Shown: positions 19,382 through 64,000, counted from the first letter of the stretch. The stretch: 64,000 nt of DNA from Myxococcales bacterium (GCA_035702105.1 DASSQZ010000235.1:2549-66548), one strand, 5' to 3'. Program-made: numbers and translations. Notes: a model not told the origin generated them from the sequence alone.

Positions 19382-21859
19382 ATGCCCTTCTTCTCGCGCG
19401 CCCTTCCTGCGGCTGTGATTGGCCTCGCCTGCGCTTGCGGAGGCTCGGCCGGAGTGAGCCCCGGCGCCTGCGGCGCCGCCTCGCTTTCCGCCGGGGTCGG
19501 CCCTGCCCAGGCGGTCGCAAAGCACGCCACCGTGCAGCTCGAAGGCAGCGCCAATGGCGCGCGCGGCGACGTCTCGTACCTCTGGCGGCTCGATGCAGTG
19601 CCGGCGGGCAGCGCGGCATCGCTCTCCTCGACCAGCATCGCCCGGCCCACCTTCACCGCCGATCAGCCCGGCGTCTACGTCGCATCGCTGGTGGTCAGGG
19701 ATGGCTGCGGCAGCGCGGCGGCATCGGCGGTGATCACGGCGGCGAACCGCGCGCCGGTGGCCTCGGGAGGGCCGGATCTTCACGCCATGCCGGGAGACGT
19801 GGTCACTCTCGACGGGGGCGGCAGCAGCGACCCCGACCAGGACGCCCTCTCCTTCAACTGGGCGCTCGTCTCCAGTCCGCCGGGGAGCAGCGCGGCGCTC
19901 TCCAGCGCCTCGGCTGCGGCGCCCGTTTTCGTGCCCGACCGGTTCGGCACCTACGTCGCATTGCTGACCGTGAGCGACGGCTCGGCGAGCAGCACGCCGG
20001 TGGCCGTGGTGGTGCAGGTCGGCGTCACCGGCCCCGCCGGCAATTGTGCTCCCGCCGCCGCACCGTTGGCCTCGCCCGGATCCGACCAGACCGTCTCCTT
20101 CTCGTCGGTCGTGCAACTGGACGGGACGCGGAGCACCAGCGGCCGCGCCAGCCCTTTGACCTACAGATGGAGCCTGACCTCCGCGCCAACCGGGAGCACG
20201 GCGTCGCTCAACAATCCGGCCAGCGCGCAACCGTTCTTCTTCATCGACCGGGTGGGCGTCTACGTCCTCACGCTGGTGGTGAACGACGGGTGCGTCGACA
20301 GCGCTCCGGCCACCGTCAAGGTGACGCGCCTGAACAGTCCGCCCACCGCTGGCGTCTTCATCTCCAGCTCGACGATTCCGATTCTGGTGCCGGTCACTTT
20401 CCAGACCTTCGTGAACGACGCCGACAACGATCCGCTCACCTTCCGCTGGCAGGTGGTCAACGCTCCGCCCGGCAGCGCCGCTTCGTTCACGGACGCCACG
20501 CGCATCGATCCGGGCTTCACGCCCGACGTCGCAGGCTCGTATACGCTCTCACTGGTTGTCAGCGATCCGGTCTCCTCGAGCGCGCCGGCGGTCATCACCT
20601 TTCCTGCGGCGAATTTGCCTCCGGTCGCGGCGGTCGGGCCTGATCAGGCCGGTACGCTCGGCGTCACGGTGACGCTCGATGGGTCTGCCAGCCTGGACCC
20701 CAGCCGGCGCCTGCTCGGCTTTTCCTGGACGCTCCAGGGTCCGCCGGGAAGCGCGGCCGCACTGGTCGGCTCGACGACTTCGAAGCCCACCTTCGTTCCC
20801 GACGTGACGGGCACGTATCTCGCGCAGCTCACCGTCAGCGCCGGCGGCCTCAATGCCCAGGCCAGGGTCTCCGTGGCGGTTTGGCCGGGTGTGGCGCGTC
20901 TGACCTACCGGGTGATCGATGCCGACTATTCCACCGCCCTGGACCGGCTCGTCGCCGTGGCGGCGGATCCGAACGCGCTTCATCTCTACGATCCGCGCAC
21001 CGCGACCGACACGGCCGTCGCCCTGCCGCTCACGCCCGAGAGCGTGAGTCTGAGCGGCGACGGGCTCTTCGCCGCCGTGGCGCACGACGGCGCCGTCTCC
21101 TATGTGGATCTGGCGGGGGCGGCGGTGGTGAGGACGCTCCCCTTCGTCGGAGACCAGGCGTTCGCCCTCCTGGGCGACAACGCGTTCGTCTATACCGCCC
21201 AGCGCGGCCCGGCCGGCGATCACGTCCGTCTGCTGGCGCAGCCGGTGGCGGGTGGCGCGATCACCACCGTCATCTCGTCGCTCACGGGCCCGGCACACGC
21301 GCGCGTCCGCAACGGTGCCGGCGCGTTGTATCTGGCCAGCGACTCGCAGTTCTTCGGCGGCATCGAGAAGTACGCGCTTTCCGGCGGGACGCCCGCGCTC
21401 GTGACGCCGGCGAACAGCGTCTTCACCAGCTCGTGCGCCAACCTCTGGTTGTCCCAGGCCGGCACGCGACTCTTCACTCGCTGCGGTGCGGTCTTGCACG
21501 CTTCCAGCGCGGCGATCGAAGATCTCACCAATGCGGGGACGCTCGCGCACGCGGCGAGCAGCCAGTTGTTCCTGCGCCACCTCTCCGACTCGACCGCGGC
21601 CGGGGAGATCTCCGCCATCGCCACCGCGGACTCGCAGTTCTTCAATACGACGGACGACCAGACCCTTCGGCGCTGGGACTCGAACGGCCTCGTGCTTCGG
21701 GAGTCGGTGCCGTTCCCGTTGGAGGCCGTGGGGACCGGGTCCTTCAAGTGGAGCGGCCGGTTCGTCTTCTACCGATCCGACGGGAGCGAGCGCTACGTCG
21801 TCCTCCAGCTCGACCCCGCAGCGGCGGTGCTGCAGGACTTCGGGGTGGCGATCTTCTAG
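19382..21859 (+). CDS. Lipoprotein with five PKD-like repeats and a C-terminal ~320-aa domain of unknown fold
   Basis: 825 aa; lipobox IGLACAC-GGS. Five ~93-aa repeats have the consensus L(S/T)(F/Y)xWxL...P.GS.A.L......P.F.PD..G.Y...L.V.DG. Confidence 0.75.
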   Translation: MPFFSRALPAAVIGLACACGGSAGVSPGACGAASLSAGVGPAQAVAKHATVQLEGSANGARGDVSYLWRLDAVPAGSAASLSSTSIARPTFTADQPGVYVASLVVRDGCGSAAASAVITAANRAPVASGGPDLHAMPGDVVTLDGGGSSDPDQDALSFNWALVSSPPGSSAALSSASAAAPVFVPDRFGTYVALLTVSDGSASSTPVAVVVQVGVTGPAGNCAPAAAPLASPGSDQTVSFSSVVQLDGTRSTSGRASPLTYRWSLTSAPTGSTASLNNPASAQPFFFIDRVGVYVLTLVVNDGCVDSAPATVKVTRLNSPPTAGVFISSSTIPILVPVTFQTFVNDADNDPLTFRWQVVNAPPGSAASFTDATRIDPGFTPDVAGSYTLSLVVSDPVSSSAPAVITFPAANLPPVAAVGPDQAGTLGVTVTLDGSASLDPSRRLLGFSWTLQGPPGSAAALVGSTTSKPTFVPDVTGTYLAQLTVSAGGLNAQARVSVAVWPGVARLTYRVIDADYSTALDRLVAVAADPNALHLYDPRTATDTAVALPLTPESVSLSGDGLFAAVAHDGAVSYVDLAGAAVVRTLPFVGDQAFALLGDNAFVYTAQRGPAGDHVRLLAQPVAGGAITTVISSLTGPAHARVRNGAGALYLASDSQFFGGIEKYALSGGTPALVTPANSVFTSSCANLWLSQAGTRLFTRCGAVLHASSAAIEDLTNAGTLAHAASSQLFLRHLSDSTAAGEISAIATADSQFFNTTDDQTLRRWDSNGLVLRESVPFPLEAVGTGSFKWSGRFVFYRSDGSERYVVLQLDPAAAVLQDFGVAIF

Positions 21860-21895
21860 TTCGTCCGGAAGGGGAGTGCGCGATATCATCCGCGC

Positions 21896-22723
21896 ATGGG
21901 CTTGCGGGGAGCAATGGCGGTGGCGCTGGCGGCGGCATTCGCGCTGCCTGCGCGGGCATCGGAGCATGACGTGCGCGCGCAGTTGCAGGTCGTGGCGGGC
22001 CGGAGCGTCTTCTTCGGGCACCAGTCGGTGGGCATGAACCTGATCGAGGGCCTGCGCGAGCTGTCGGCGGAGCAGGGCGTGCCGCTGCGGGTGGTGGAGG
22101 CAAAGGGCCGCCTCGACGTTACCGCCGGCACCTTCGCGCATTCGTACATCGCCGAGAACGGCGACCCGATGCACAAGCTGCGCAGCTTCGCCCAGGCGCT
22201 CGACGGCGCCGCTGCCGAGCCCGCGCTCGCCCTGATGAAATTCTGCTTCGTCGACTTCCGCCCGGACACCGACGCGCGGGCGCTCTTCGCCAGCTATCAG
22301 GAGACGCTCGCGGGGCTGAAAGCGCGCCATCCCGGCATCGCCTTCGTCCACGTCACCACGCCGCTCACCACCGTGCAGGGCGGGATGAAGGGCGCGCTGA
22401 AGCGCCTTCTCGGCAGGGCGCCCGCGGGATTGCTCGAGAACGAGCGCCGCGAGGAATACAACGCGCTCCTGCGCGCGGCGTACCGCGGGCGCGAGCCCTT
22501 CTTCGATCTCGCGGAGGCGGAGTCCACGCGCCCCGACGGTACCCGCGAGACGGCCGAGTGGCACGGCGCGGCGGTGCCCGCGCTGGTGCCTGCCTACACC
22601 GTCGATGGAGCGCACCTGGCCGGCGATGGCCGGCTCCGGGTCGCGCGAAGGTTCCTCGCCGTGCTCGCGTCGGCGCCGGTGGGTGCCGGTGTGGCTCCGC
22701 CCCAGGCCTCGCGCCAGCCCTGA
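21896..22723 (+). CDS. Secreted hypothetical protein
   Basis: 275 aa; signal peptide MGLRGAMAVALAAAFALPARA-SE. Good GC3 coding signal. I recognise no diagnostic motif. Confidence 0.6.
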   Translation: MGLRGAMAVALAAAFALPARASEHDVRAQLQVVAGRSVFFGHQSVGMNLIEGLRELSAEQGVPLRVVEAKGRLDVTAGTFAHSYIAENGDPMHKLRSFAQALDGAAAEPALALMKFCFVDFRPDTDARALFASYQETLAGLKARHPGIAFVHVTTPLTTVQGGMKGALKRLLGRAPAGLLENERREEYNALLRAAYRGREPFFDLAEAESTRPDGTRETAEWHGAAVPALVPAYTVDGAHLAGDGRLRVARRFLAVLASAPVGAGVAPPQASRQP

Positions 22724-53282: not shown

Positions 53283-54482
53283 TCATCCGTGCGCCTGGCG
53301 CAGCACCAGGCCGGCCACGCCCGCAGCCACGATCACCAGCGGCTCGGGGACCTTGCGCAGCTTCCAGAGCGCGAGCAGCGTGAAGAGGAAGATCAGCACG
53401 GTGGGCAGGTCGAGGATGGCGCGCCGGCCCAGCACCCAGGTCGCCCCGGCGATGGCGCCGGTGGCCGCGGCGGTGACGCCGTCCACGAACGACTTGATCT
53501 GGGAGACCCTGGCCCAGCGCCGGTAGTAGGGCGCGGGGATGATGACGAACAGGTAGCAGGGAAGGAAGACGCCGACGGCGGAGACGATTGCGCCGCCCAG
53601 GCCGGCGACGAGGTAGCCGATGAAGGCGACCGTGATCACTACCGGTCCCGGCGTGATCATCGCCACCGCCACGGCGTCGAGGAACTGGCGCTCGTCGAGC
53701 CAGCGCATCTCGGTGACCACGCCGCCATGGAGGAAGGGGACGATGGCGAGGCCGCTTCCGAAGACCACCGCGCCCGCCACGGCGAAGAACCAGAAGATCT
53801 TCCAGACCAGCGCGGCGCCGGCCGGCTCGCCCAGGCCGCCGAGCACCCAGTGGGGAAGGGCCGCGAGCATGGCCGCGGACGCGCCCGCCCGGAAGGGCGT
53901 GCGCACGAGCATGACCAGCACGCCTCCGGCGAGGAAGATCCAGAGGATCTCCTTTTCGGTGTAGCCGGTGACCGCGGCGCTGACGGCGAACACGATCCAG
54001 AGCAGGCTGTCGCGCGCCAGCGTGAGCCGCACCAGCTTCACCGCGCTGCGCGCGATGATCGCGATCACCGCCGCGCCGATGCCGTAGAAGGCGCCCTGCA
54101 TCCAGGGCAGGCCGCCGTACTTCACGTAGAAGGCGGAGATGGCGAGCACCATCAGGAAGGAAGGGGAGATGAAGGCGAGGCTCACCAGCGTCGCGCCGGC
54201 GACCCGGGCGCGCACCCAGCCGAGGTAGATGGCGAGCTGGGCGGCGAGCGGACCCGGCGCGAGCTGCGCCAGCGCGAGGCCCTCCACGTAGTCCTGCCGG
54301 GAGATCCAGCGGCGCCGCTCCACCAGGTCGCGCTGCATGTAGCCGGCGAGCGCGATGGGCCCGCCAAAACCAAACGTGCCGAGCCGGAGGAAGTAGAGGA
54401 GCAGCTCGCGGATGGAGCAGGGGACCAGGGCTTCCGCGGCGGCCTCGGGAGCGGTGGATTCCGGCGCGCTGGAAGCTTTCAT
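53283..54482 (-). CDS. chrA: Chromate ion transporter ChrA, copy 2
   Basis: 399 aa. FLRLGTFGFGGPIALAGYMQRDLVERRRWISRQDY and a second CHR half (..VFGSGLAIVPFLHGGVV..RWLDERQFLDAVA..). High GC3, like the bulk of the window. Confidence 0.9.
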   Translation of the reverse strand: MKASSAPESTAPEAAAEALVPCSIRELLLYFLRLGTFGFGGPIALAGYMQRDLVERRRWISRQDYVEGLALAQLAPGPLAAQLAIYLGWVRARVAGATLVSLAFISPSFLMVLAISAFYVKYGGLPWMQGAFYGIGAAVIAIIARSAVKLVRLTLARDSLLWIVFAVSAAVTGYTEKEILWIFLAGGVLVMLVRTPFRAGASAAMLAALPHWVLGGLGEPAGAALVWKIFWFFAVAGAVVFGSGLAIVPFLHGGVVTEMRWLDERQFLDAVAVAMITPGPVVITVAFIGYLVAGLGGAIVSAVGVFLPCYLFVIIPAPYYRRWARVSQIKSFVDGVTAAATGAIAGATWVLGRRAILDLPTVLIFLFTLLALWKLRKVPEPLVIVAAGVAGLVLRQAHG

Positions 54483-54540: not shown

Positions 54541-55539
54541 GTGGCGGAAAGCGAGAAGAGCGCGCGCGAGCCGGGCTGGCTCCTGCTCATCCACCAGATT
54601 CCGCCCAGGCCCAACTACTTCCGGGTGAAGATCTGGCGCAGGCTGCAGAAGCTGGGCGCCATCGCCATCAAGAACTCGGTCTACGCCCTGCCCGCCGGCG
54701 AGCAGGCGCAGGAGGACCTGAACTGGATCCTGCGCGAGATCGTCGAGGGCGGCGGCGACGCCTCGCTGGTCGAGGCGCGGCTGGTCGAGGGTCTCGACGA
54801 CGAGCAGGTGAGGGAGATGTTCCGCGCCGCGCGCGATGCCGATTACCAGGCGGTGGCGGAGGAGGTGCGGAAGGCGGCGCGCGGCCTTCCCCGCAAGGGA
54901 GAGATGTCGGAGGAGAAGCGGGCGGAGCTTTCCGCCGCGCTGGCGAAGCTGCACAAGCGGCTGGGCGAGATCGCCGCCATCGATTTCTTCCACGCGCGCA
55001 GCAGGGAGGCGGTGGACGGGCTCCTCCGCGAGCTGGAAGAGAAGGCCGCGGCGCGCGCGCCTGCGGGGCCGGAGGCGGACTCGCTGCCGCCGCAACGGCC
55101 GCGCGGCGCCACCTGGGTGACCCGCACCGGCATCCACGTCGACCGGATGGCGAGCGCATGGCTCATCCGCCGCTTCATCGATCCCCAGGCGAAGTTCAGG
55201 TTCGTGGCGGCGCGCGAGCATCGGCACCAGTCCGGCGAGCTGCGCTTCGACATGTTCGACGGCGAGTTCACCCACCAGGGCGAGCTCTGCTCGTTCGAGG
55301 TGCTGTTGGCCCGCTTCGAGATCGCCGATCCGGCCCTGCGGGCCATCGCCGAGATCGTCCACGACATCGATCTCAAGGACGAGAAGTACGGCCGGGCCGA
55401 CAACGCCGGGTTCGAGCACCTGGTCAACGGCATCGCGCTGGCCCATCCGGAGGACGAGGCGCGGCTCGAGCGCGCCTGCGCGGTGCTCGACGACCTCTAC
55501 GAATATTTCCGGCGCAAGCGGCGGGGAGGGGAGGCCTGA
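54541..55539 (+). CDS. chrB: Chromate resistance protein ChrB
   Basis: 332 aa, GTG start. N-terminal WLLLIHQIPPRPNYFRVKIWRRLQKLGA..KNSVYALP and a C-terminal rhodanese-like half (..HVDRMASAWLIRRFIDP.A.F.F..) as in ChrB. Divergent from chrA copy 2. Confidence 0.85.
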   Translation: MAESEKSAREPGWLLLIHQIPPRPNYFRVKIWRRLQKLGAIAIKNSVYALPAGEQAQEDLNWILREIVEGGGDASLVEARLVEGLDDEQVREMFRAARDADYQAVAEEVRKAARGLPRKGEMSEEKRAELSAALAKLHKRLGEIAAIDFFHARSREAVDGLLRELEEKAAARAPAGPEADSLPPQRPRGATWVTRTGIHVDRMASAWLIRRFIDPQAKFRFVAAREHRHQSGELRFDMFDGEFTHQGELCSFEVLLARFEIADPALRAIAEIVHDIDLKDEKYGRADNAGFEHLVNGIALAHPEDEARLERACAVLDDLYEYFRRKRRGGEA

Positions 55540-55570: not shown

Positions 55571-56434
55571 TCACTTCCTGGTGAGCGCGGCCAGCTCTCC
55601 TGGATACGCGTGCAGCAGCGTCCCGGGGACCTTCACCTTCCCGCCCGTGACCTGCGCTTCCAGCATCAGCGCGTTGGCCACCGCCTGGCCGGCGAAATGG
55701 TTGTTGTTGACCGCGTAGACGTCGGTGACGCCCGGCTCCTGCGCCAGCGCCAGGGTGCGCTCCGCCCAGGGCTTCAGCTCCGCCGCCGAGTAGAGGTAGT
55801 CGTAGCGCTCGTCGCGCCCCGCCGCCTTGCGGAACCAATCCTTGTAGTTGCGGCCGTGGACGCGGATGTAGCCCACCTTCGACGTGGCGCGGGCCGAAGG
55901 CGGCAGCGAGTTGCGGAACATGGGCTGGTCGAGGTTGACGATGCCGATGCTCTCCTCGGCCAGCCCGGCGTAGAAGTCCGGCTCGTTCCAGGAGAGGTGG
56001 CGCACCTCCACCACCAGCGGGTAGGCGCGGAAGGCGCGGGCCAGGTCGCGCAGCCACTCGCGGTTCTGCTCCTGGTTGCGGAACGACCAGGGGAACTGCA
56101 GCAGGAGCGCGCCCAGCCTGCCTGCGTCGGCGAGCGGATCGAGGCCTGCCCGCACCGCGTCCACCTCCTCGCGCGTCCAGGCAAGGGTCCGCTCGTGCGT
56201 GAAGCGGCGCCAGAGCTTGGCGGTGAAGCGGAAGTCCGGATGGTCCTTCACCCGCTCGTTCCAGGCGCGGGCGGCGGCGGGCGAGGGCGGACGGTAGAAG
56301 GTGGAGTTGATCTCGACGGTGCGGAAGTAACCGGCGATGTATCGCAGCGGGTCGAATCCCTTCGGCCTGGGCTTCGGGTAGACCTTGCCCGCCCAGTCGG
56401 GATAGTCCCAGCCCGCGGGCCCGAAGCGGATCAA
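55571..56434 (-). CDS. DUF72 (YecE/UPF0759) family protein
   Basis: 287 aa from TTG 56434 (LIRFGPAGWDYPDWAGKVYP...YFRTVEINSTFY), the canonical DUF72 N-terminus. The start overlaps the stop of the upstream gene (TTGA, 56431-56434). Confidence 0.8.
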   Translation of the reverse strand: MIRFGPAGWDYPDWAGKVYPKPRPKGFDPLRYIAGYFRTVEINSTFYRPPSPAAARAWNERVKDHPDFRFTAKLWRRFTHERTLAWTREEVDAVRAGLDPLADAGRLGALLLQFPWSFRNQEQNREWLRDLARAFRAYPLVVEVRHLSWNEPDFYAGLAEESIGIVNLDQPMFRNSLPPSARATSKVGYIRVHGRNYKDWFRKAAGRDERYDYLYSAAELKPWAERTLALAQEPGVTDVYAVNNNHFAGQAVANALMLEAQVTGGKVKVPGTLLHAYPGELAALTRK

Positions 56435-58872
56435 GCGGAGAGCGCCTCGTGGACGCGCAGCGCCACCAGCGACGGTCCGGAGAGATCGATCCACTGCTTG
56501 AGCAGCGAGCGCCCGGGCTCGTAGGCGATCCGTCCGGCGGAGAGGCGGGTGAGGAAGGGCGCGTCGCTGGTGAACCACTGCTCCACGCGCAGGAGCGATC
56601 CGTCGCCCGCGCCACCGGCGAAGGTCCTCCACCACGGATCGGGCGGGTGCGGCGAGAGCCCGGAGTCGAGCGCGTCGGGAACTCCGAACCAGCGCTGGCG
56701 CAGTTCCTGGGCGTCCGCGGCGTCCACGCCCTGCAGCTCCACAGCCGCGTCGTCCTCCACGGGCCCGACCTCCGCGCGGAGCGCCCCTTCGCAGAGGCGG
56801 CGCTTGTCCATGCGCTGGATCTGCACCGGTACGCCGGCGAGCAGCGGCTCGCGCGAGAGCCAGGCTTCGATGCGCCGCAGGGTCTCGCGCTCGCGCTCGG
56901 GGTTGGGAGCATCCAGCGCGGCGAGCTTCCACCCTTCGCCGAGCAGGTAGAGCCGCAGCCCGGCGCCGCGCAGTCCGCTGCCGTCCGGCGCCGCGCGGCG
57001 CAGGGTCCCGTCGAGCTGGCGGCGGACGAGCGAGAGCACCGTGCCGAGAATGGCCTTCTGCGCCGCCTCCGCCGCCTTGCGCTGGCTCGCGTCCAGGTGC
57101 CCTCCCTCGGCGATGAGCGTGCGCCAGCGCCGCGCGTTGGCGGAGAAGGCCTCGCGCAGCGCGCCGCCGCCCAGCGCCGCCGCGGCGAAGGCGGCGGAGT
57201 CGATCAGGCGCTCGCCGCCGAGCAGGTAGCTCATCGAGGAGCCGGCGATGAAGGGCGCGGGCCGCCCCTCGCCGCGCGGCAGCCGCACGGTCATCTGCAG
57301 CGTCAGGCCGCCGAAGTCGGCGAAGGCCTCGATCGGGTGGCGGTCCTCGTCGCCGGTGGCGCGAGCCGCCTTCGCGGCCACCGGGTCCGCCACCAGGCGG
57401 TGGCTGGCGCTCGCCCAGGCGGAGCGGAGGCCGGCGCAGATCTCGTCCGCCACTCCGGTGAAGACCGCGCTGAACGGCTCGCCCGAGGCGGCGCTCCACG
57501 GGCAGGGCGGGAACGTGACCACCGTCTCCACGGCGCCGAGCCGCGGCGCGCGCAAGGTCCAGCGCCCCCCTTCGGGGGCCACCAGCGGAGTGGCGTGGGC
57601 GGCGGCGAGAGCGCGGCCGAGGAGCAGGCCATACGCCTCGAGCAGCCTGCGGCTCGCGCGCGACGGGTCCGCGTCGGGGACGGCGGCGAGCCAATCGGAG
57701 AGCATCATCAAATCGGGCGACTTGAAGCGGTCGGCCCGGACCGGGTCGCGGGCGGGCTCCGGCCCGGCCTGCGGCAGCCAGAGCTGGTCGGCGGAGGCCT
57801 GGCCCGCGAGCACGCGGCGCAGCGCGGCTGCGTTCGCGGCCACCAGCGCGGTGGGGAGCTGTCCGCCCGGCGCGAGCAGTTGCTCGCCGCAGCCGAAGAG
57901 ATGCGCAGTGGCCGGGTCTCCGGCGAGCCGGCAGAAGCCCGAGGGCGCGGCGTCGCGCTGCGGCTCGTGCAGCAGCTTCTTGCCCAGGGCGCCGGAGGAG
58001 GCGGTGTCCTCCTCCACCACCACCGTGGAGGTGCTGCCGATGTCCACCGCGATGCGGAGCGAGACGGGGACCGTGGGCGCCAGCGCGGCGCGCCCGGCGG
58101 GCGCCATTCCCCTGCGCGCCTGCCAGAGCGCGTCGAGGTCGAAGAGCGCCTGCGGCTCGCGCCCCTCCTGTGCCCGGAGCACTGCCCATCGCGGAGGCGA
58201 GGCCGTGGTCCAGGTGGCCACCGATTCCCCAGCCGCCCCCGCGTCGCTCCCGGCTGAAGGCGTGGCGGGCGGGCCCAGCCAGAGCGGCACCGGCCGACCC
58301 GCCGCGGTGCGGTGCGCCGCCGCCCGCAGCGACACCGGGCCGCGCCATCCCTCGCTGGCGAAAGGCGGGGAGAGCGCGAGGTGCACGTGCATCGACGCCG
58401 CGCCGGAGGCGAAGCGCGCGGCAAAGGTGACCGGGAAGCACTCGACCGCGGCAAGCTCGGTCTCGCGGACCACCGCGAGGAACGCGCGCAGCACCGCGCG
58501 GCCGCCCTCGAGCACGGGGGCGCCGTCCGGCACCAGCACGCCGGCATCGATCAGCCAGGCGCACCAGGACGGCACGGGCAGCGGAACCAGCGCCTTCTCC
58601 GCAGAGGGCCCCTGGGCATTGGCGGGCACCAGCACCGGGTCGGCGCACCCCACCAGGTCGCGCCAGTCCGCCAGGGCCGGCCCGAGCAGCGACTGCGCGG
58701 CCTGCTCGGTGAGTCCAAATCCCATGCCCATGGCCGCGAGCAGCGCGTCGATGGCGAGTTGCGGCTTCAGCGGGTTGGACCGGTCGTGCGCCAGCAGCGG
58801 CGAGCCGCGGCGGCGCAACCCGCGCAGCACGGAGCCGGCTGCGCGGCGGAGAACGAGCGGATCGGACTCCAC
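56431..58872 (-). CDS. 813-aa protein with an actin/Hsp70-like (ASKHA) ATPase core flanked by unknown N- and C-terminal domains
   Basis: GTG 58872 behind a GAGGAGG RBS. Motifs: RIAVDIGSTSTVVV (phosphate-1, ~aa 273-286), AVETVVTFPPC (compare Hsp70 AVITVPAYF, ~aa 447-457), FADFGGLTLQMTV (phosphate-2 DxGGxT, ~aa 517-529), LRLYLLGEGWKL (adenosine-motif-like, ~aa 639-650). The CDS call is firm; the functional call is tentative. Confidence 0.65.
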   Translation of the reverse strand: MESDPLVLRRAAGSVLRGLRRRGSPLLAHDRSNPLKPQLAIDALLAAMGMGFGLTEQAAQSLLGPALADWRDLVGCADPVLVPANAQGPSAEKALVPLPVPSWCAWLIDAGVLVPDGAPVLEGGRAVLRAFLAVVRETELAAVECFPVTFAARFASGAASMHVHLALSPPFASEGWRGPVSLRAAAHRTAAGRPVPLWLGPPATPSAGSDAGAAGESVATWTTASPPRWAVLRAQEGREPQALFDLDALWQARRGMAPAGRAALAPTVPVSLRIAVDIGSTSTVVVEEDTASSGALGKKLLHEPQRDAAPSGFCRLAGDPATAHLFGCGEQLLAPGGQLPTALVAANAAALRRVLAGQASADQLWLPQAGPEPARDPVRADRFKSPDLMMLSDWLAAVPDADPSRASRRLLEAYGLLLGRALAAAHATPLVAPEGGRWTLRAPRLGAVETVVTFPPCPWSAASGEPFSAVFTGVADEICAGLRSAWASASHRLVADPVAAKAARATGDEDRHPIEAFADFGGLTLQMTVRLPRGEGRPAPFIAGSSMSYLLGGERLIDSAAFAAAALGGGALREAFSANARRWRTLIAEGGHLDASQRKAAEAAQKAILGTVLSLVRRQLDGTLRRAAPDGSGLRGAGLRLYLLGEGWKLAALDAPNPERERETLRRIEAWLSREPLLAGVPVQIQRMDKRRLCEGALRAEVGPVEDDAAVELQGVDAADAQELRQRWFGVPDALDSGLSPHPPDPWWRTFAGGAGDGSLLRVEQWFTSDAPFLTRLSAGRIAYEPGRSLLKQWIDLSGPSLVALRVHEALSA

Positions 58873-58884
58873 CAGGCGGCCTCC

Positions 58885-59160
58885 TCAGCGCAGGTAGCTG
58901 CGCGCTTGTTCGACGGCCGCCGCGGGCGGCTCTTCATCGCCGCGCCCGGGCTTGCGCGCCGACAGCCGCGCGATCGATGCGGTGAGCGCGAAGAGCGCCC
59001 CGAGCGCGATCCAGAGGTTCCGGTCTCCCAGCGCCGCCGCGGCGTCGAGCAACTCGGGGGGAAGGAGGAGCGCGAGCGCGCTGGGAACGAGCAGGGTGAC
59101 GCCGCCGGCCACCACCAGTGCGAGCAGCCAGGGCCGTCTCTCGAGCGCCGCGAGCTTCAT
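58885..59160 (-). CDS. Small membrane protein (91 aa, 2 TM)
   Basis: MKLAALERRPWLLALVVAGGVTLLVPSALALLL ... NLWIALGALFALTASIA. The start overlaps the stop of the ABC fusion gene (ATGA, 59157-59160). Its own stop overlaps the RBS of the next gene. Confidence 0.55.
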   Translation of the reverse strand: MKLAALERRPWLLALVVAGGVTLLVPSALALLLPPELLDAAAALGDRNLWIALGALFALTASIARLSARKPGRGDEEPPAAAVEQARSYLR

Positions 59161-61631
59161 GCAGAACCCCCCTCGATGGTCCACTCCACGGCCGGCACGC
59201 CCAAGCCATGCGCGAGCCCCAGGTCCACCAGTGGACTGTGCGAGACCAGCACCGCCGCCCGCGGCTCGGCCTCGCCGAGCCAGCGCAAGAGAGCGTCCAT
59301 CAGCCGCAGGTGCGCGGGCGGATCGAGGGCGCCGAAGGGCTCGTCGAGGAGCAGCAGCCGCAGGCGGGAGCGGGGTGACGCCTCCAGCCGCAGCACCTCC
59401 GCCGCCAGGAGCACGCGCTGCCTCTCCCCCTCGGAGAGCACGCCGATGGGCCGGGAGAGCAGGGCATCGTCGATGGGGCCGAACCAGTGGCGCACCCGGT
59501 CGGTGCGGGGCCGCGCCCCCAGCACCTCCCGGACGGGCATCTCCAGCGGGTAGGCGCGCGCGGTGTCCTGCATCACGTAGCCCATCGCCACCGAAGGGAG
59601 CGGGCGCGCGGCCACGGCGCGCAGCAGCGTGGTCTTGCCGCAGCCCGATGCGCCCGAGAGCACCACCAGCTCGCCCGGCCGCACCTGCGCGTCCGGGGAG
59701 ATCAGGTGCGCCCTGCCCGCGATGGAGACGCGCGGGCCGAGGACGCGAATGCCGCCGGTCGAGTCGCCGGGCCCGGCAGGCGCGGCGCAGGCGCGGGCGG
59801 CCAGCATCTCTCCCGAGGCGTCGAGGTAGCGCTGCAGCGCCGGCGGCCGGGGCGGGCCTTCCCAGCGGAGCCGCGCATGCACCGCGAATTCGTGCGCGCG
59901 GCCGCCCTCCAGCCAGAGCACGTGATCGGTCACCGCCTCCGGCGCGCGGTCGCCGAGGAGGGCGTCCACCGCCTCGGGATCGTGCGAGGGGAGCACCACC
60001 GACCCGGCGCCCGCGAACTGCGGCGGGAGGAGCTCGCGCAGGCAGTCGAGGAGCGCGTGCGTGCGCGCGGGGTCCTGCGCGGAGGTGGGCTCGTCGAGGA
60101 GCAGCGTGCAGTCGGCGTCGCAGCGGACCCGCGCCAGCGCCAGGCAGAAGAGGAGCCGCTGCCGTTCGCCGCGGGAGAAGGCGGAGACCGAGGTAAAGGG
60201 ATCGAGGAGCCGGCTGCGGATGCGGTCGTCGTCGACGCGGCCGAGCAGGTCCCAGACCGCGCGCGCCTCCTGCGGGCGGGCCATGGAGGCGACGTCGGAA
60301 GCGGAGAGGGCCGCGGGCAGGGCCTCGTCGGGATCCTGGGGCACGAGCAGCGCGTCGGGAAGCTGCGCCGCCCACGCCCGCAAGAGCAGCGTCTTGCCCG
60401 CCCCCGAAGGACCGAGCACCCATTGCAGCGCGGGGCGCGGGGAAAGGCCGTGGGCGCCGGCGACCCCGCGGAACAGCTCGGCGCCGCCCAGATGCAGCGC
60501 GCCGTCGCGCAGGATCGAGCGGAGCCCGCGGCGGGGGAAGGCGTGCGCCAGCACCAGCAGCATGGCGGCGGCCACCACCGCGACGTGCGCCGAGCTCCAC
60601 GAGCCTGGAAGCGGCGTGGGCGCGCCGTCGGCGCCGATGCCGCGGAGGAAGAGCGCGGCGCCGAGCGAGGGATAGAGGGGAAAGCCGGGCGGCCGGAAGC
60701 TGTCGATGAGCGTGTTGGAGAGGATGTCGATGAACACCGCGGCTGCCATCCCGCCCAGGAGCAGGCCGCCAAGCTCGCGCCGCCGGCGCAGCCAGAGGCC
60801 GTGCCGGAGCAGGATCTCCCAGGGAGCGAGACCGCGCACCCGTGCCGCGACGAACGAGTCGCTGCCCTCCTCCGCAAGGCGCACCTCCTCGAGCCAGCTG
60901 ACGAGGCCGCGCGCGATGGCGAGCCCCAGCAGGAGCGAGGCCGAGAGCAGGCCCGGCGCCATGCCGAAGAGCGACGCGTAGGCGAGGCGATCGTCGGGAC
61001 GCAGCGCGAGGAAGCGCCCGGCGGCGAGGAACGCGGCGGGGCGGCAGAGGAGCGCGCGCATCACCAGCGCGAAGGCCACGTAGGGCACCGCGCCGGCGAA
61101 GGCGAGCAGGGCGTCCAGGGCGCGGCGCTCGCCGCCCAGACGGCGCGCATAGAGCCAGAGCCAGAGCGCCCCGAGCAGCGCCGCCGTGGCGCCTGCGCCG
61201 AGCGCCAGGACCGAAGTGCCGGCGAGCATCATGGGAAGGGCCGGCTCGAAGAGGCGGTCGGTGAGGGGGCCCTGGGTGAGCACCGCCATGCGCAGGGGAA
61301 AGAAGATGCCGCTGCTCCAGGCGAGGTAGAGCGCCTCGGCGATCATCAGAGCGAAGGCGAGCCCGACGAAGACGTCGGGCGCGGCAGGCGGCGGAGCCGA
61401 TGCGGCCGGGTCGGGGTTGCGGCGCGGCAGCGCGGCGCCGGCATTGCGTCGCACGAAGGCGGCGACCACCAGCCCGCCGCCCAGGAGCAGGAGCGCCAGC
61501 AGCGCCGCCGCGATCGGGTGCGGCTCGTCGCGCCAGGGCAGCGCGCAGAGCTGGGCAACTCCCGCCGCCGCGGAGAGCAGGGCCACCCCTGCCATGGCGC
61601 GGAACCCGGGCGGAAGCAGCCGCGCGATCAC
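59157..61631 (-). CDS. ABC transporter fusion: BPD-type permease domain plus two ATPase domains (TMD-NBD-NBD)
   Basis: 824 aa from GTG 61631. Degenerate EAA loop FVAARVRGLAPWEILLRHGLW (OppC/DppC-like). NBD1: GPSGAGKT, FSRGERQR, LLLDEPTSAQD. NBD2: GASGCGKT, LSEGERQR, LLLDEPFGALD, VLVSHS. Confidence 0.85.
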   Translation of the reverse strand: MIARLLPPGFRAMAGVALLSAAAGVAQLCALPWRDEPHPIAAALLALLLLGGGLVVAAFVRRNAGAALPRRNPDPAASAPPPAAPDVFVGLAFALMIAEALYLAWSSGIFFPLRMAVLTQGPLTDRLFEPALPMMLAGTSVLALGAGATAALLGALWLWLYARRLGGERRALDALLAFAGAVPYVAFALVMRALLCRPAAFLAAGRFLALRPDDRLAYASLFGMAPGLLSASLLLGLAIARGLVSWLEEVRLAEEGSDSFVAARVRGLAPWEILLRHGLWLRRRRELGGLLLGGMAAAVFIDILSNTLIDSFRPPGFPLYPSLGAALFLRGIGADGAPTPLPGSWSSAHVAVVAAAMLLVLAHAFPRRGLRSILRDGALHLGGAELFRGVAGAHGLSPRPALQWVLGPSGAGKTLLLRAWAAQLPDALLVPQDPDEALPAALSASDVASMARPQEARAVWDLLGRVDDDRIRSRLLDPFTSVSAFSRGERQRLLFCLALARVRCDADCTLLLDEPTSAQDPARTHALLDCLRELLPPQFAGAGSVVLPSHDPEAVDALLGDRAPEAVTDHVLWLEGGRAHEFAVHARLRWEGPPRPPALQRYLDASGEMLAARACAAPAGPGDSTGGIRVLGPRVSIAGRAHLISPDAQVRPGELVVLSGASGCGKTTLLRAVAARPLPSVAMGYVMQDTARAYPLEMPVREVLGARPRTDRVRHWFGPIDDALLSRPIGVLSEGERQRVLLAAEVLRLEASPRSRLRLLLLDEPFGALDPPAHLRLMDALLRWLGEAEPRAAVLVSHSPLVDLGLAHGLGVPAVEWTIEGGSA

Positions 61632-62650
61632 GGCGCGAACCTCGCGGCGCCGAGCGCATTGCGCATCTCCAGCACGAAGCGGTGTCCGGCGAACCAGAGC
61701 AGCACCACCGCGCCCGCCACCAGCGCGCAGGAGGAGAGCCGCTCGCCGGCCGCGGCCTCGCCGAGCGCCGCCCGGATCAGCGCGCCGAGTCCGCTGCTCG
61801 AGCCTTGCACCCGCGGGTCCTGGTCGGCCCTGGCGCAGACGAAGAGCGCGGCTCCCGCGAGCGCCGGCACCATGGGCACCAGCCAATCCGCCGCTTCCAG
61901 GGCGGCCACCCGCGCCGCCCGCCCGAAGGCGGGGTGTCCACCGGAGCGGGCGAAGCGCGCCGGCCCGAACAGGGCGCGCGCGGCCACCGCCGAGAGCGTG
62001 CCTGCGAATGCCGCCACGAAGAGGGCGGCGCCGAGACCTGCGCCGGCGGACCGCGTGCGGTCGTAGAACAGCGCCGGATCGAGCAGCGCCCAGAGGGGAT
62101 GGACGACGAGGGCGTAGCAGCCTGCCGCGAACGCGAGCCGTCCCCCGGTTCCCGCGTTGCGAAGCCTGGCCAGCGCGCCGCCGGCGGCCGCCGCCAGGAG
62201 CGAGAGCCCGAGGCCTCCGACGACGAAGGGAAGCGCGTCCGCCGCTCCGCGCGCTGCGGTGCGGAACCGGCTCTTGTCGGACGAGGCCGCGGCCCATGCG
62301 TCGCGCAGGGAGGCGAGGCGCAGCCCTTCGCCCGGCGCGGCGGGCAGCTCCCAGTCGGGGCGGCGCGCCCAGAGCCGCAGGAGGGCCGCCTGATCCGTGC
62401 CGGCGAGGCCCCGGTCGGCGGCGGCGCGCAGCACGGCGAGATCGAAGTCGAGGTACGCGGCCGCCGAAGTCTCCGCCGCAGGCCCGGCGCCGGAGCGATC
62501 GAAGGCGGCGAGGCCCAGCGCTAGCAGCAGGAGGCCGGCAAACCCGCACGCGCAGGCGGCGGCCCAGCGAAGCGCGCCCGCCGCGAGCCGGCTGGCCAGC
62601 GCAGCGGCGGCCAGCGCGCGCACGCCATCGGTCGGGGCCGGGCCGGTCAT
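61628..62650 (-). CDS. Polytopic membrane protein, probably the second (OppB/DppB-like) permease, highly divergent
   Basis: 340 aa from ATG 62650. N-terminal TM, a ~100-aa extracytoplasmic segment, then five or more TM. Weak EAA-like stretch FARSGGHPAFGRAARVAALEAADWLVPMV. Overlaps neighbours by 4 nt at both ends. Confidence 0.55.
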   Translation of the reverse strand: MTGPAPTDGVRALAAAALASRLAAGALRWAAACACGFAGLLLLALGLAAFDRSGAGPAAETSAAAYLDFDLAVLRAAADRGLAGTDQAALLRLWARRPDWELPAAPGEGLRLASLRDAWAAASSDKSRFRTAARGAADALPFVVGGLGLSLLAAAAGGALARLRNAGTGGRLAFAAGCYALVVHPLWALLDPALFYDRTRSAGAGLGAALFVAAFAGTLSAVAARALFGPARFARSGGHPAFGRAARVAALEAADWLVPMVPALAGAALFVCARADQDPRVQGSSSGLGALIRAALGEAAAGERLSSCALVAGAVVLLWFAGHRFVLEMRNALGAARFAP

Positions 62651-63702
62651 GGCGGTGCCGCCGGCGAGCATTCGCCGCTGAGGGCGGCAGCGCAGCCGAG
62701 CTGGCGCTCCAGGGCGGCGCGCAGCACGTCCAGCTCCTGGCAGTGGCCCGACCACGCCGCGGCATCGAGGGAGAACGAGGCGCGGTCGAGGGAGGGCGAA
62801 GGGGAGCCGCGGATCTCGCGGTCCCACTGATCGAAGCGATCGAGGGTCGCGGAGCGCGACCTCGCCGCCTCCCCGCAGGGCCGGGGAGGAGGATTGGGAT
62901 CGGGTTCGCGCGCGGGTTCCGGTGCGAGCGCGGGACGGGATTCGGCTGCAGGCGGCGGTTCGGGTGCGTGCGGGGGTTCGGCCGCGGCCTGCGATGTGCG
63001 GGCGGAATGGCGCAGGAGGGCCTCCTCGATCGGGAGGGCGGGGTCGAAGGCCGCCGCCCATTGCCGATCGGTTGCCGCAAAGGGCTTGAGCGCGATGGGG
63101 AAGGATGCGCCGGAAGGGTCGGGTTCGCCGGTGTCGGGCCTGACCGCGAGCAGCCACCACTCGCAGGCGTTCGCCTTCTCCAAGGTTGCGCGCGCCTCGG
63201 TCGCGGCCGCGGGCCATGGCCAGCCTTTTTCCCCCGGCCAGCAGAGGAGCGCGGTGCGCAGCGCCGTGCGGTCGGGCGCCCCCGCCGCCACAGCAGCCGG
63301 CTTGCGGGACCTGCGCGGCCAGCCGGAAACCCCGGGCCCGAGCGCCACCTGTTCCAAGAGCGCGGGCGGCGGCGGCGCGGGCGCCATGCGGATCGCGGCC
63401 AGCTCCACCGGGCTGCGCGCGCCGAAGAGACCGCGCGCGGAGACGGCGCAGTCGGGATCGGCGTTCGAGCGCAAGAGCTTGATGCGCCCCGGCGCCGGCC
63501 AGCGCTGCCGCGCGTAGTCGTCGAGAGCCCGCACCTGCACGCCGGCGCGCACCTCGCAGGCGTCGTCCGGCTCGCCCTGGCACTCGGCGCATCCGCGCAG
63601 CACCGTGGCGGCGGGCGCGTACTGCACGGCGCGGAACCAGTCTGCCGGCGCGGCGGCGGCCGCGGCGAGGAGCAGCAGGAGCGTCACGGCTGCGCGCTCC
63701 AC
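62647..63702 (-). CDS. Secreted protein of unknown function (Cys pairs, Pro-rich linker)
   Basis: 351 aa from GTG 63702. Signal peptide VERAAVTLLLLLAAAAAAPA. CAECQGEPDDAC, a central PEPPPAAESRPALAPEPAREPDPNPPPRP linker, and a C-terminal Cys-containing domain. Confidence 0.6.
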   Translation of the reverse strand: MERAAVTLLLLLAAAAAAPADWFRAVQYAPAATVLRGCAECQGEPDDACEVRAGVQVRALDDYARQRWPAPGRIKLLRSNADPDCAVSARGLFGARSPVELAAIRMAPAPPPPALLEQVALGPGVSGWPRRSRKPAAVAAGAPDRTALRTALLCWPGEKGWPWPAAATEARATLEKANACEWWLLAVRPDTGEPDPSGASFPIALKPFAATDRQWAAAFDPALPIEEALLRHSARTSQAAAEPPHAPEPPPAAESRPALAPEPAREPDPNPPPRPCGEAARSRSATLDRFDQWDREIRGSPSPSLDRASFSLDAAAWSGHCQELDVLRAALERQLGCAAALSGECSPAAPP

Positions 63703-64000
63703 GCCTGCAGGACGCGCGCGAAGTACCAGGGGCTGCGCGCCGGCTCCGCCTGCGAGTCGGGAATGGCCAGCGTGCCGGGATGCAGGAAGGCGAGCGGGAA
63801 GATGGGCGCCGGGCCGTTGCGCGCCACGTCCTCCTCCAGCATCCGCAGGCTCTCGCTCCGCGCCGGCGGCGCGCCGGCGGGCGCCCCGAGCCAGGCCGGC
63901 GGCGGGAAGACGATGGACGACTCGTACGCGGTCAAGAGCGCGCGGCCGGGGTTCTCGCTGACCGCCTGGCCGCCGCTCAGGTTCTGGTTGCCGGCCGGAT
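63684..64000 (-). CDS. 3' end of a gene continuing beyond the window (first gene of the operon as seen here)
   Basis: The frame is open to the window edge with strong GC3 (..PAGNQNLSGGQAVSENPGRALLTAYESSIVFPPPAWLG...WSAQP*). The listed TTG 63935 start is probably internal. Its position fits a solute-binding component, but no motif supports that. Confidence 0.5.
   Translation of the reverse strand, partial: PAGNQNLSGGQAVSENPGRALLTAYESSIVFPPPAWLGAPAGAPPARSESLRMLEEDVARNGPAPIFPLAFLHPGTLAIPDSQAEPARSPWYFARVLQAWSAQP

Follow-up and report, generated by a model that had tools for sequence, protein, structure and literature searches.

The operon discussed here lies at one end of a stretch of 64,000 nucleotides (nt) of DNA from a Myxococcales bacterium (GCA_035702105.1 DASSQZ010000235.1:2549-66548), which in its full length is called the window below. 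From position 55571 to 64000 its minus strand carries a closely packed block of genes that brings together what is best supported as a very divergent ABC importer, a small membrane protein, a protein of 813 amino acids (aa) with an actin/Hsp70-type (ASKHA) core, and a DUF72 gene. A first-pass annotation, made from the sequence of the window, had counted eight open reading frames (ORFs) in this block. Seven were found, including one truncated at the edge of the window, and they are joined by six junctions, all of which proved on inspection of the sequence to lie where the annotation had placed them. The features are as follows, the genes being lettered by their place in the complete operon, with the labels g2 to g6 in brackets.

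63684..64000, minus strand: F, fragment with the last 104 codons, cut by the window edge
63684-63702, minus strand: F/G junction, a 19-nt overlap
62647..63702, minus strand: G (g2), 351 aa, from sequence
62647-62650, minus strand: G/H junction, ATGA
61628..62650, minus strand: H (g3), 340 aa, from sequence
61628-61631, minus strand: H/I junction, GTGA
59157..61631, minus strand: I (g4), 824 aa, from sequence
60468..61631, minus strand: transmembrane domain of I, residues 1-388, from AlphaFold2, Foldseek and hhalign
59160..60449, minus strand: tandem ABC ATPase domains of I, residues ~395-824, from two Pfam ABC_tran matches
59157-59160, minus strand: I/J junction, ATGA
58885..59160, minus strand: J (g5), 91 aa, from sequence
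58873-58884, minus strand: J/K junction, a 12-nt spacer with the sequence CGCTGAGGAGGCCGCCTGGTG, the sole junction without overlap
56431..58872, minus strand: K (g6), 813 aa, from sequence
56431-56434, minus strand: K/DUF72 junction, TTGA
55571..56434, minus strand: DUF72 gene, 287 aa, from sequence and Pfam

The minus-strand ORFs can be regarded as real genes, since their GC content at the third and second codon positions (GC3 0.87-0.97, GC2 0.48-0.65) matches the signature expected for a genome of ~75% GC. At the F/G junction an alternative start would give a 4-nt GTGA overlap (63684-63687), and four-base overlaps at the F/G, G/H and H/I junctions are also seen in relatives. In the spacer between J and K, TGAGGAGG spans the stop codon of J, and a GGAGG Shine-Dalgarno sequence begins within that stop codon, with 7 nt from GGAGG to the GTG start of K. 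No terminator-like or promoter-like site was found inside the block when its minus strand was scanned, and an Rfam scan of both strands of the whole window returned no family at gathering score. In high-GC bacteria the genes of an operon ordinarily overlap by four bases in this way; here the overlaps argue for a single transcript, by themselves not for stoichiometric production of the encoded proteins.

The block is the 3' part of something larger. When related loci (designated by numbers such as L021) were fetched around homologues of K and around one upstream gene, the fragment at the window edge was found to match the C-terminal end of F from L002, L021 and L031 at 76-97% identity (tblastn), and thus under half of the operon is visible in the window, which holds the tail of F through K. 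In relatives the block is preceded by at least five further genes in the same direction. The order B-C-D-E-F-G-H-I-J-K, accompanied by a divergently transcribed gene A, is conserved in about 15 loci of the main clade, which consists of uncultured Myxococcota from soil. The cluster is not a self-contained unit of eight genes, the number that had first been given, but the 3' portion of an operon of at least ten genes, which is situated within a neighbourhood of roughly 20 genes. Outside the window, in relatives, the upstream part consists of the following genes.

A: divergently transcribed, 555 aa, HExxH gene
B, C and D: ~408, ~309 and ~303 aa, without signal peptide
E: exported lipoprotein of ~808 aa

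Protein A (L031 5983-7647, minus strand, and homologues) contains an invariant segment, ARHEALHLLLAA, with the sequence HEALH, a HExxH motif like that of zinc proteases, and was matched by no family or solved structure. Gene order is also kept in the distant loci L006, L045, L046 and L047, the K proteins of which show only 25-32% identity. The ABC genes and the ASKHA gene, whose association had been predicted from the window, are thus syntenic in every lineage examined, down to this level of identity. All K homologues come from metagenomes, one of which is labelled farmland, and from metagenome-assembled genomes of uncultured Myxococcales and Deltaproteobacteria. In the closest of the loci described here with a long contig, L021 (633-12443; K 86% identical, 225-kb contig), mechanical gene calling splits E, F and K, which suggests assembly frameshift errors rather than real pseudogenes.

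Few of the proteins are recognised by sequence. In the block itself Pfam and NCBIfam matches were obtained for I (ABC_tran, twice) and the DUF72 gene only, and for the in-window and upstream proteins together the Pfam, NCBIfam and PADLOC searches gave only ABC_tran, DUF72, Transgly, Peptidase_M23 and a sub-threshold SLT match. Searches of the PDB with profile hidden Markov models (HMMs) built from alignments of A, B, C and E yielded no credible match. No sequence family in Pfam, NCBIfam, PADLOC or the PDB accounts for the gene set, and the earlier statement that no system of such composition is known stood up to a search of the literature. The parts that can be recognised, which are a type I ABC importer, an ASKHA ATPase with a probable membrane tether, a GT51 glycosyltransferase and an M23 peptidase, belong to known kinds as variants of them; the way in which they are combined is undescribed, as are about 14 proteins that accompany them.

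In protein I, as had been proposed, a permease and two ABC ATPase domains are fused in one chain; the membrane domain has a type I (binding-protein-dependent, BPD-type) importer fold. The AlphaFold2 model of residues 1-388 has a pLDDT of 91.1 and a pTM of 0.90, and the top 15 Foldseek matches of this membrane domain are all permeases of type I importers (PstC, DppB/C, OppB/C, SugA/B, MetI), with OppB/C represented from both E. coli and M. tuberculosis and TM-scores of up to 0.53. An FtsEX-like fold was considered for the same domain and rejected, no MacB-type structure being present among the 50 Foldseek matches listed. The domain also has an EAA-type coupling loop, SDSFVAARVRGLAPWEILLRH, in which a conserved SDSFVAARVRG...LLRH segment aligns with the EAA loop of OppB/OppC-type permeases; in hhalign the loop matches the OppB type with E = 0.0069, and 118 columns match the OppC type with E = 0.024. 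The hhalign values were obtained with six-sequence references and diverse queries, three-sequence E. coli references being too weak, and the homologues of I were taken from a search with the full-length protein, as a search with the membrane domain gave 16 mostly partial matches. Pfam BPD_transp_1 does not detect the membrane domain. The ATPase domains (nucleotide-binding domains, NBDs) are recognised by sequence: ABC_tran matches twice (Pfam, E = 1.3e-19), with NBD1 at residues ~395-590 and NBD2 at ~640-824, and in both of them Walker A, Q-loop, signature (SRGERQR and LSEGERQR), Walker B (LLLDEP) and the histidine of the H-loop are kept in at least 90% of 41 homologues. The best-supported conclusion is that I is a very divergent type I (Opp/Dpp-like) importer permease in an unusual permease-ATPase-ATPase fusion.

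The second transmembrane subunit of the transporter is presumed to be H, a multi-pass membrane protein encoded directly upstream of I in all cases. Apart from its position, the presumption is based on one distant homologue, P0188 (L047 10001-14065, 1354 aa), in which H-like and I-like parts are fused to a complete transporter in one chain, with two transmembrane domains followed by two NBDs. Protein F, which in relatives is a periplasmic protein of ~742 aa with a signal peptide, may supply the substrate-binding function. Its residues 589-731 align with residues 378-506 of OppA/DppA/NikA/GsiB/SapA/YejA over 126 collinear columns (hhalign, E = 0.025, as compared to 0.5 for a control comparison), and on the same C-terminal region of the F homologue of L006 there is a faint Pfam SBP_bac_5 match (E = 0.26). 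This is suggestive of a resemblance between the C-terminal ~140 residues of F and the C-terminal lobe of family-5 solute-binding proteins; an alignment of F gave no credible match in a profile HMM search of the PDB. The fourth protein of this group, G, is a secreted protein of 351 aa with conserved cysteines and a variable Pro-rich linker, for which no Pfam, NCBIfam or PADLOC match was found. Homologues in synteny show 45-72% identity in the main clade, as against about 30% in L045 and L046. In L004 (5449-6402) the linker of the G homologue is a KEKEPT-type tandem repeat, as compared to a Pro/Ala-rich stretch in the protein of the window.

Protein K consists of an N-terminal beta-rich domain (residues ~1-260), an ASKHA core (~265-700, window positions 56773-58080), and an extension at the C-terminus, the last helix of which is conserved. 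An AlphaFold2 model based on an alignment of 31 homologues has a pLDDT of 81.8 and a pTM of 0.87, and Foldseek matches its core to the nucleotide-binding domains of Hsp70 proteins (E = 4e-7) and to ParM (E = 2.5e-6), with 189 PDB structures matched at E<=1e-3. An alignment of 31 sequences, which reaches down to 35% identity, shows the residues D277/G279, D519/G521/G522/T524, G552/G553/E554 and G645 to be invariant; judged from motif patterns, D277/G279, D519/G521/G522/T524 and G645 would represent the phosphate-1 (DxG), phosphate-2 (DxGGxT) and G-rich adenosine motifs, respectively. The structural match of the modelled core and the invariant motifs thus show that the actin/Hsp70-fold reading of the 813-aa protein was correct, and K probably binds ATP.

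The family to which K belongs is very small. An exhaustive profile search retrieved only 56 relatives among 1.84 billion representative proteins, about a dozen of them full-length, and did not reach any Hsp70, so that K falls outside the Hsp70 family proper. By sequence (Pfam, NCBIfam and PDB profile searches) K is not an Hsp70, MreB, FtsA or PilM protein either, and scans of ten divergent relatives revealed no matching Pfam domain. One relative, P0228 (1177 aa), matches positions 65-387 of the K profile and carries an unrelated C-terminal FGE-sulfatase (formylglycine-generating enzyme-like) domain at 956-1151; in view of this architecture the N-terminal domain of K may be a separable module.

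The small protein J, encoded between the transporter and K, is a membrane hairpin of two helices, flanked by positive residues on each of its cytoplasmic sides; its cytoplasmic tail is variable, acidic and Pro-rich. In an alignment of 24 homologues the tail ends in an invariant (Y/H)LR-COOH in the main clade. In deep clades the tails end in FFT, EYF, DEW or PIY, with an aromatic residue at or beside the C-terminus. Every cluster that contains K has kept this C-terminal motif, and in a paralogous cluster of L051 that has no K, J ends in TQRTQG, without an aromatic residue. To judge from these patterns, the J tail is probably a short docking peptide, or tether, for the adjacent cytoplasmic K.

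Some natural variants of the cluster indicate which of its parts depend on each other. In the sister loci L015 (558-5154) and L017 (4774-11148), the K proteins of which are 74% identical to each other, G, H and I have been lost and E, J and K have been kept. J still has its YLR/HLR tail in these loci and K is intact, and F has shrunk to 642 and 447 residues, in L017 with loss of the binding-protein-like region. The reverse situation is found in L051 (2898-14518; ENA contig k141_6015131), with an E-F-G-H-I-J cluster that lacks K and in which the I protein is 46% identical to that of the window. The two kinds of variants therefore support a link of F to the transporter and a link of J to K, and they also show that the transporter and the ATPase are separable. 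The obligatory, stoichiometric coupling of the ASKHA protein to the transporter that had been proposed is contradicted by both the clade without G-H-I and the paralogous E-J cluster without K.

The paralogous cluster of L051 shares its 51.9-kb contig with a K gene of the main type (19946-22541, minus strand). It is preceded by two large sensor histidine kinase genes, and J is followed by a gene for an Amidase-family lipoprotein. The latter was considered as a replacement for K and rejected, in view of its lipoprotein signal peptide and the intergenic gap that separates it from J; it is probably an unrelated neighbour.

A further recurrent feature is a set of peptidoglycan-related genes, which accompanies the cluster in every lineage for which enough flanking DNA is visible. 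The module encodes a GT51 glycosyltransferase (Pfam Transgly, E = 2.4e-16) in which no transpeptidase domain could be recognised, a Peptidase_M23 protein (E = 7e-25) and five small envelope proteins of no known family. In L046 and L047 it is co-directional with the operon and located downstream of K; in L031 and L037 it is located upstream of A and is differently arranged. The proteins are 27-56% identical between the versions of L031/L037, L046 and L047. In L006 an M23 gene adjoins K, and in L031 there is an additional SLT-like protein, with a score just under the Pfam threshold. The GT51 motifs (EDRGFF, GGSTIPQQLAK) and M23 motifs (HRGVD, HLHF) of L031 are intact.

The gene downstream of K has a different history. 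It is a clear DUF72 gene (PF01904, E = 1.7e-56, 192 bits versus a cut-off of 25.3), and its overlap with K is also present in L021. Besides the window, only L007, L008 and L021, with K proteins of 73% identity or more, have a DUF72 gene after K. More than 12 other loci whose sequence extends past K, all with K below about 73% identity, lack it at this position. Elsewhere the position is occupied by, for example, a rhomboid gene (L002) or an MFS gene on the opposite strand (L004). Beyond DUF72 the genes differ even at 86% identity: ChrB and ChrA in the window versus Peptidase_S51 and ornithine cyclodeaminase in L021. The membership of DUF72 in the system, which the first-pass annotation had assumed, was accordingly not borne out. 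DUF72 is a neighbour that was recently captured at the 3' end of the operon in a sub-lineage only, and it stands outside the conserved system. We know of no established function for the DUF72/YecE family, and a literature search on its function found nothing relevant. In the window, the DUF72 gene is followed by a chromate-resistance pair:

54541-55539, plus strand: ChrB (ChrB_C, E = 1.5e-46), convergent with the DUF72 gene, with ~31 nt between the stops
53283-54482, minus strand: ChrA (Chromate_transp, E = 2e-81), downstream of the DUF72 gene

The explanation that we prefer, tentatively and at somewhat less than an even chance for all its parts jointly, is that the operon encodes an Opp/Dpp-like importer and a J-tethered ASKHA ATPase within a peptidoglycan-linked envelope gene set. 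Protein F would deliver a periplasmic ligand to the H-I transporter by means of its solute-binding-protein-like C-terminal lobe, and the transporter would import this ligand at the expense of ATP. K, which the tail of J would keep at the membrane, could act beside the transporter as an ATP-driven enzyme or scaffold. The cargo, or the context in which the system operates, may be peptidoglycan-derived material, which would imply either uptake of muropeptides or other cell-wall peptides, or coordination of wall remodelling. A peptidoglycan-derived cargo or context seems the most likely because across deep divergence the cluster stays by genes for GT51, M23, SLT-like and five envelope proteins. 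Uptake or handling of cell-wall-derived peptides is our best guess of the function, and it is held with low confidence.

Several observations weigh against this explanation. With respect to the transporter, the Foldseek E-values of the membrane domain of I are weak (6e-3 to 0.1), uniform as the list of matches is, and neither the alignment of this domain nor that of H found a credible match when the PDB was searched with profile HMMs. In hhalign, H reaches E-values of only 0.3-0.4 with OppB/OppC types, and the BPD-type permease that the first-pass annotation had seen in it was not confirmed by these searches. The likeness of F to binding proteins is below significance, and its N-terminal ~570 residues match nothing. 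The NBDs of I are nearest to heme, zinc (AztA), CydD and B12 (BtuD) ATPases, all far below the NCBIfam cut-offs, and no Opp/Dpp ATPase model was present among the NCBIfam matches listed, so that the NBDs cannot be classified as OppD/OppF-type. With respect to K, the persistence of intact J and K after loss of G-H-I implies that K is independent of the transporter, and this fits a scaffold role better than processing of a cargo. The link to peptidoglycan rests on gene neighbourhood, and no gene of the peptidoglycan module occurs within the window's 64 kb. Finally, ten to fourteen proteins of the neighbourhood are without any detectable homologue.

Some of the same points favour the strongest of the alternatives, which is that the gene set forms a machine for building or remodelling the wall and not an importer. 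The ABC unit would then be a motor that passes ATP-driven conformational changes on to the periplasmic proteins E, F and G, and K an actin-like scaffold tethered by J, which together would work with a dedicated GT51 synthase, M23 endopeptidase and SLT on a specialised peptidoglycan structure. The GT51, M23 and five envelope genes adjoin the cluster in three arrangements, and the catalytic motifs of the two enzymes are intact in L031. It also agrees with this alternative that J and K are intact when G-H-I are lost, that the J tail motif tracks the presence of K, and that K matches ParM as well as Hsp70. On the other hand, the membrane domain of I has the fold of a type I importer, not the MacB/FtsX type VII fold of the known mechanotransmitters, F has a weak binding-protein-like lobe, and the ABC part persists without K in L051. 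Polymerisation of K is, moreover, an assumption that this explanation brings with it. We consider a wall machine unlikely, though deserving of serious attention. If it existed, it would be a new kind of cell-wall machine, an envelope-spanning apparatus of ~20 genes in uncultured Myxococcota with about a dozen proteins of no known fold that would build, repair or remodel such a structure, which we regard as an improbable outcome to much the same extent.

A reading that builds on the first-pass annotation, namely a self-contained eight-gene operon for uptake and processing, in which the transporter and the ASKHA and DUF72 proteins would be produced in stoichiometric amounts and the latter two would act on whatever is imported, must now be considered quite improbable. 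It has in its favour that the stop/start overlaps reach as far as DUF72 both in the window and in L021, and that the ABC and ASKHA genes are syntenic. However, relatives below about 73% identity have no DUF72 after K, there are seven ORFs in an operon that extends at least five genes further upstream, and the ABC and ASKHA parts have become separated in natural variants. An anti-phage defence system or mobile-element cargo around ABC-type/STAND-like ATPases, suggested by PADLOC matches (mad3, AriA, PtuA) and faint Pfam nSTAND/AAA matches that all fall on the ATPase domains of I, is hardly credible and was rejected because these PADLOC matches are generic to P-loop/ABC ATPase domains, with no other protein of the cluster matched, an ATPase fused to a transporter membrane domain, partners that are mostly exported envelope proteins, and a stable chromosomal synteny throughout the clade with vertical-looking divergence.

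Under the preferred explanation of an importer with a tethered ATPase as well as under its main alternative, the cluster is of interest for what it adds to the known diversity of envelope systems. Of the roughly 20 conserved proteins in its neighbourhood, about 14 have no counterpart among family, structure or defence models, and still the set is passed on stably throughout the clade; the cluster is thus well-defined functional dark matter, not annotation noise, in a clade of abundant soil bacteria. The detection of a type I importer fold, in an unusual TMD-NBD-NBD fusion and so diverged that sequence models no longer reach it, offers a calibration of the transporter diversity that is missed by sequence-based annotation. 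K represents a new and very small family in the actin/Hsp70 superfamily, with a plausible membrane tether, and natural deletion variants of this family already indicate which parts depend on each other. If the link to the cell wall is true, the system would point to a new route for uptake of peptidoglycan fragments or to a new wall-remodelling complex in Myxococcota.

It is instructive to compare the system with known ones. The DUF72 gene is a clear member of the DUF72/YecE family, yet its presence beside the cluster is specific to one lineage and it is no component of the system. A second comparison is that with FtsEX-EnvC, in which the ABC complex FtsEX controls EnvC, a factor with an M23/LytM domain, and cell-wall hydrolases such as amidases. 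Here too the genes for an ABC ATPase complex are linked to those for an M23 peptidase and for peptidoglycan synthesis. The differences are that FtsX has the type VII (MacB-like) fold, as opposed to the type I importer fold of I, and that the M23 protein of the present module keeps its HxxxD/HxH catalytic motifs, whereas EnvC is catalytically dead.

The putative pair of J and K resembles envelope machines in which an actin/Hsp70-fold protein is bound to the membrane. FtsA, MreB and PilM are tethered by FtsN, RodZ and PilN, respectively, and in PilM-PilN, FtsA-FtsN, MreB-RodZ and the cytoplasmic domain of GspL, as in the present cluster, an ASKHA protein goes together with a small membrane protein that has a short, conserved peptide on its cytoplasmic side. 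The association with peptidoglycan enzymes is likewise shared by K. However, K has 813 aa, with a beta domain of ~260 aa at the N-terminus and an extension at the C-terminus, and matches no MreB, FtsA, PilM or HSP70 model, and the putative docking peptide of J is located at the C-terminus of a two-helix hairpin instead of at the N-terminus of a single-pass protein.

The closest comparison for the transporter is with the Opp/Dpp (PepT) systems, such as DppBCDF and OppBCDF of E. coli and OppABCD of M. tuberculosis. There are clear differences. In the present cluster no significant Pfam match to BPD_transp_1, SBP_bac_5 or oligo_HPY is found, one permease and both ATPases are combined in one chain, the ATPases are closest to the heme/zinc/B12 type, and F is ~200 residues longer than OppA and for the most part unalignable with it. 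The extra exported partners (E and G) and cytoplasmic partners (A-D, J and K) also set the cluster apart. The likenesses are the fold of I with its EAA loop, the presence of two ATPase domains per transporter, and the upstream gene for a large periplasmic protein, F, with a C-terminal lobe that weakly resembles family-5 binding proteins. To these a possible connection with cell-wall peptides may be added: E. coli OppBCDF imports murein tripeptide with the binding protein MppA, and the gene neighbourhood of the present cluster points in the same direction.

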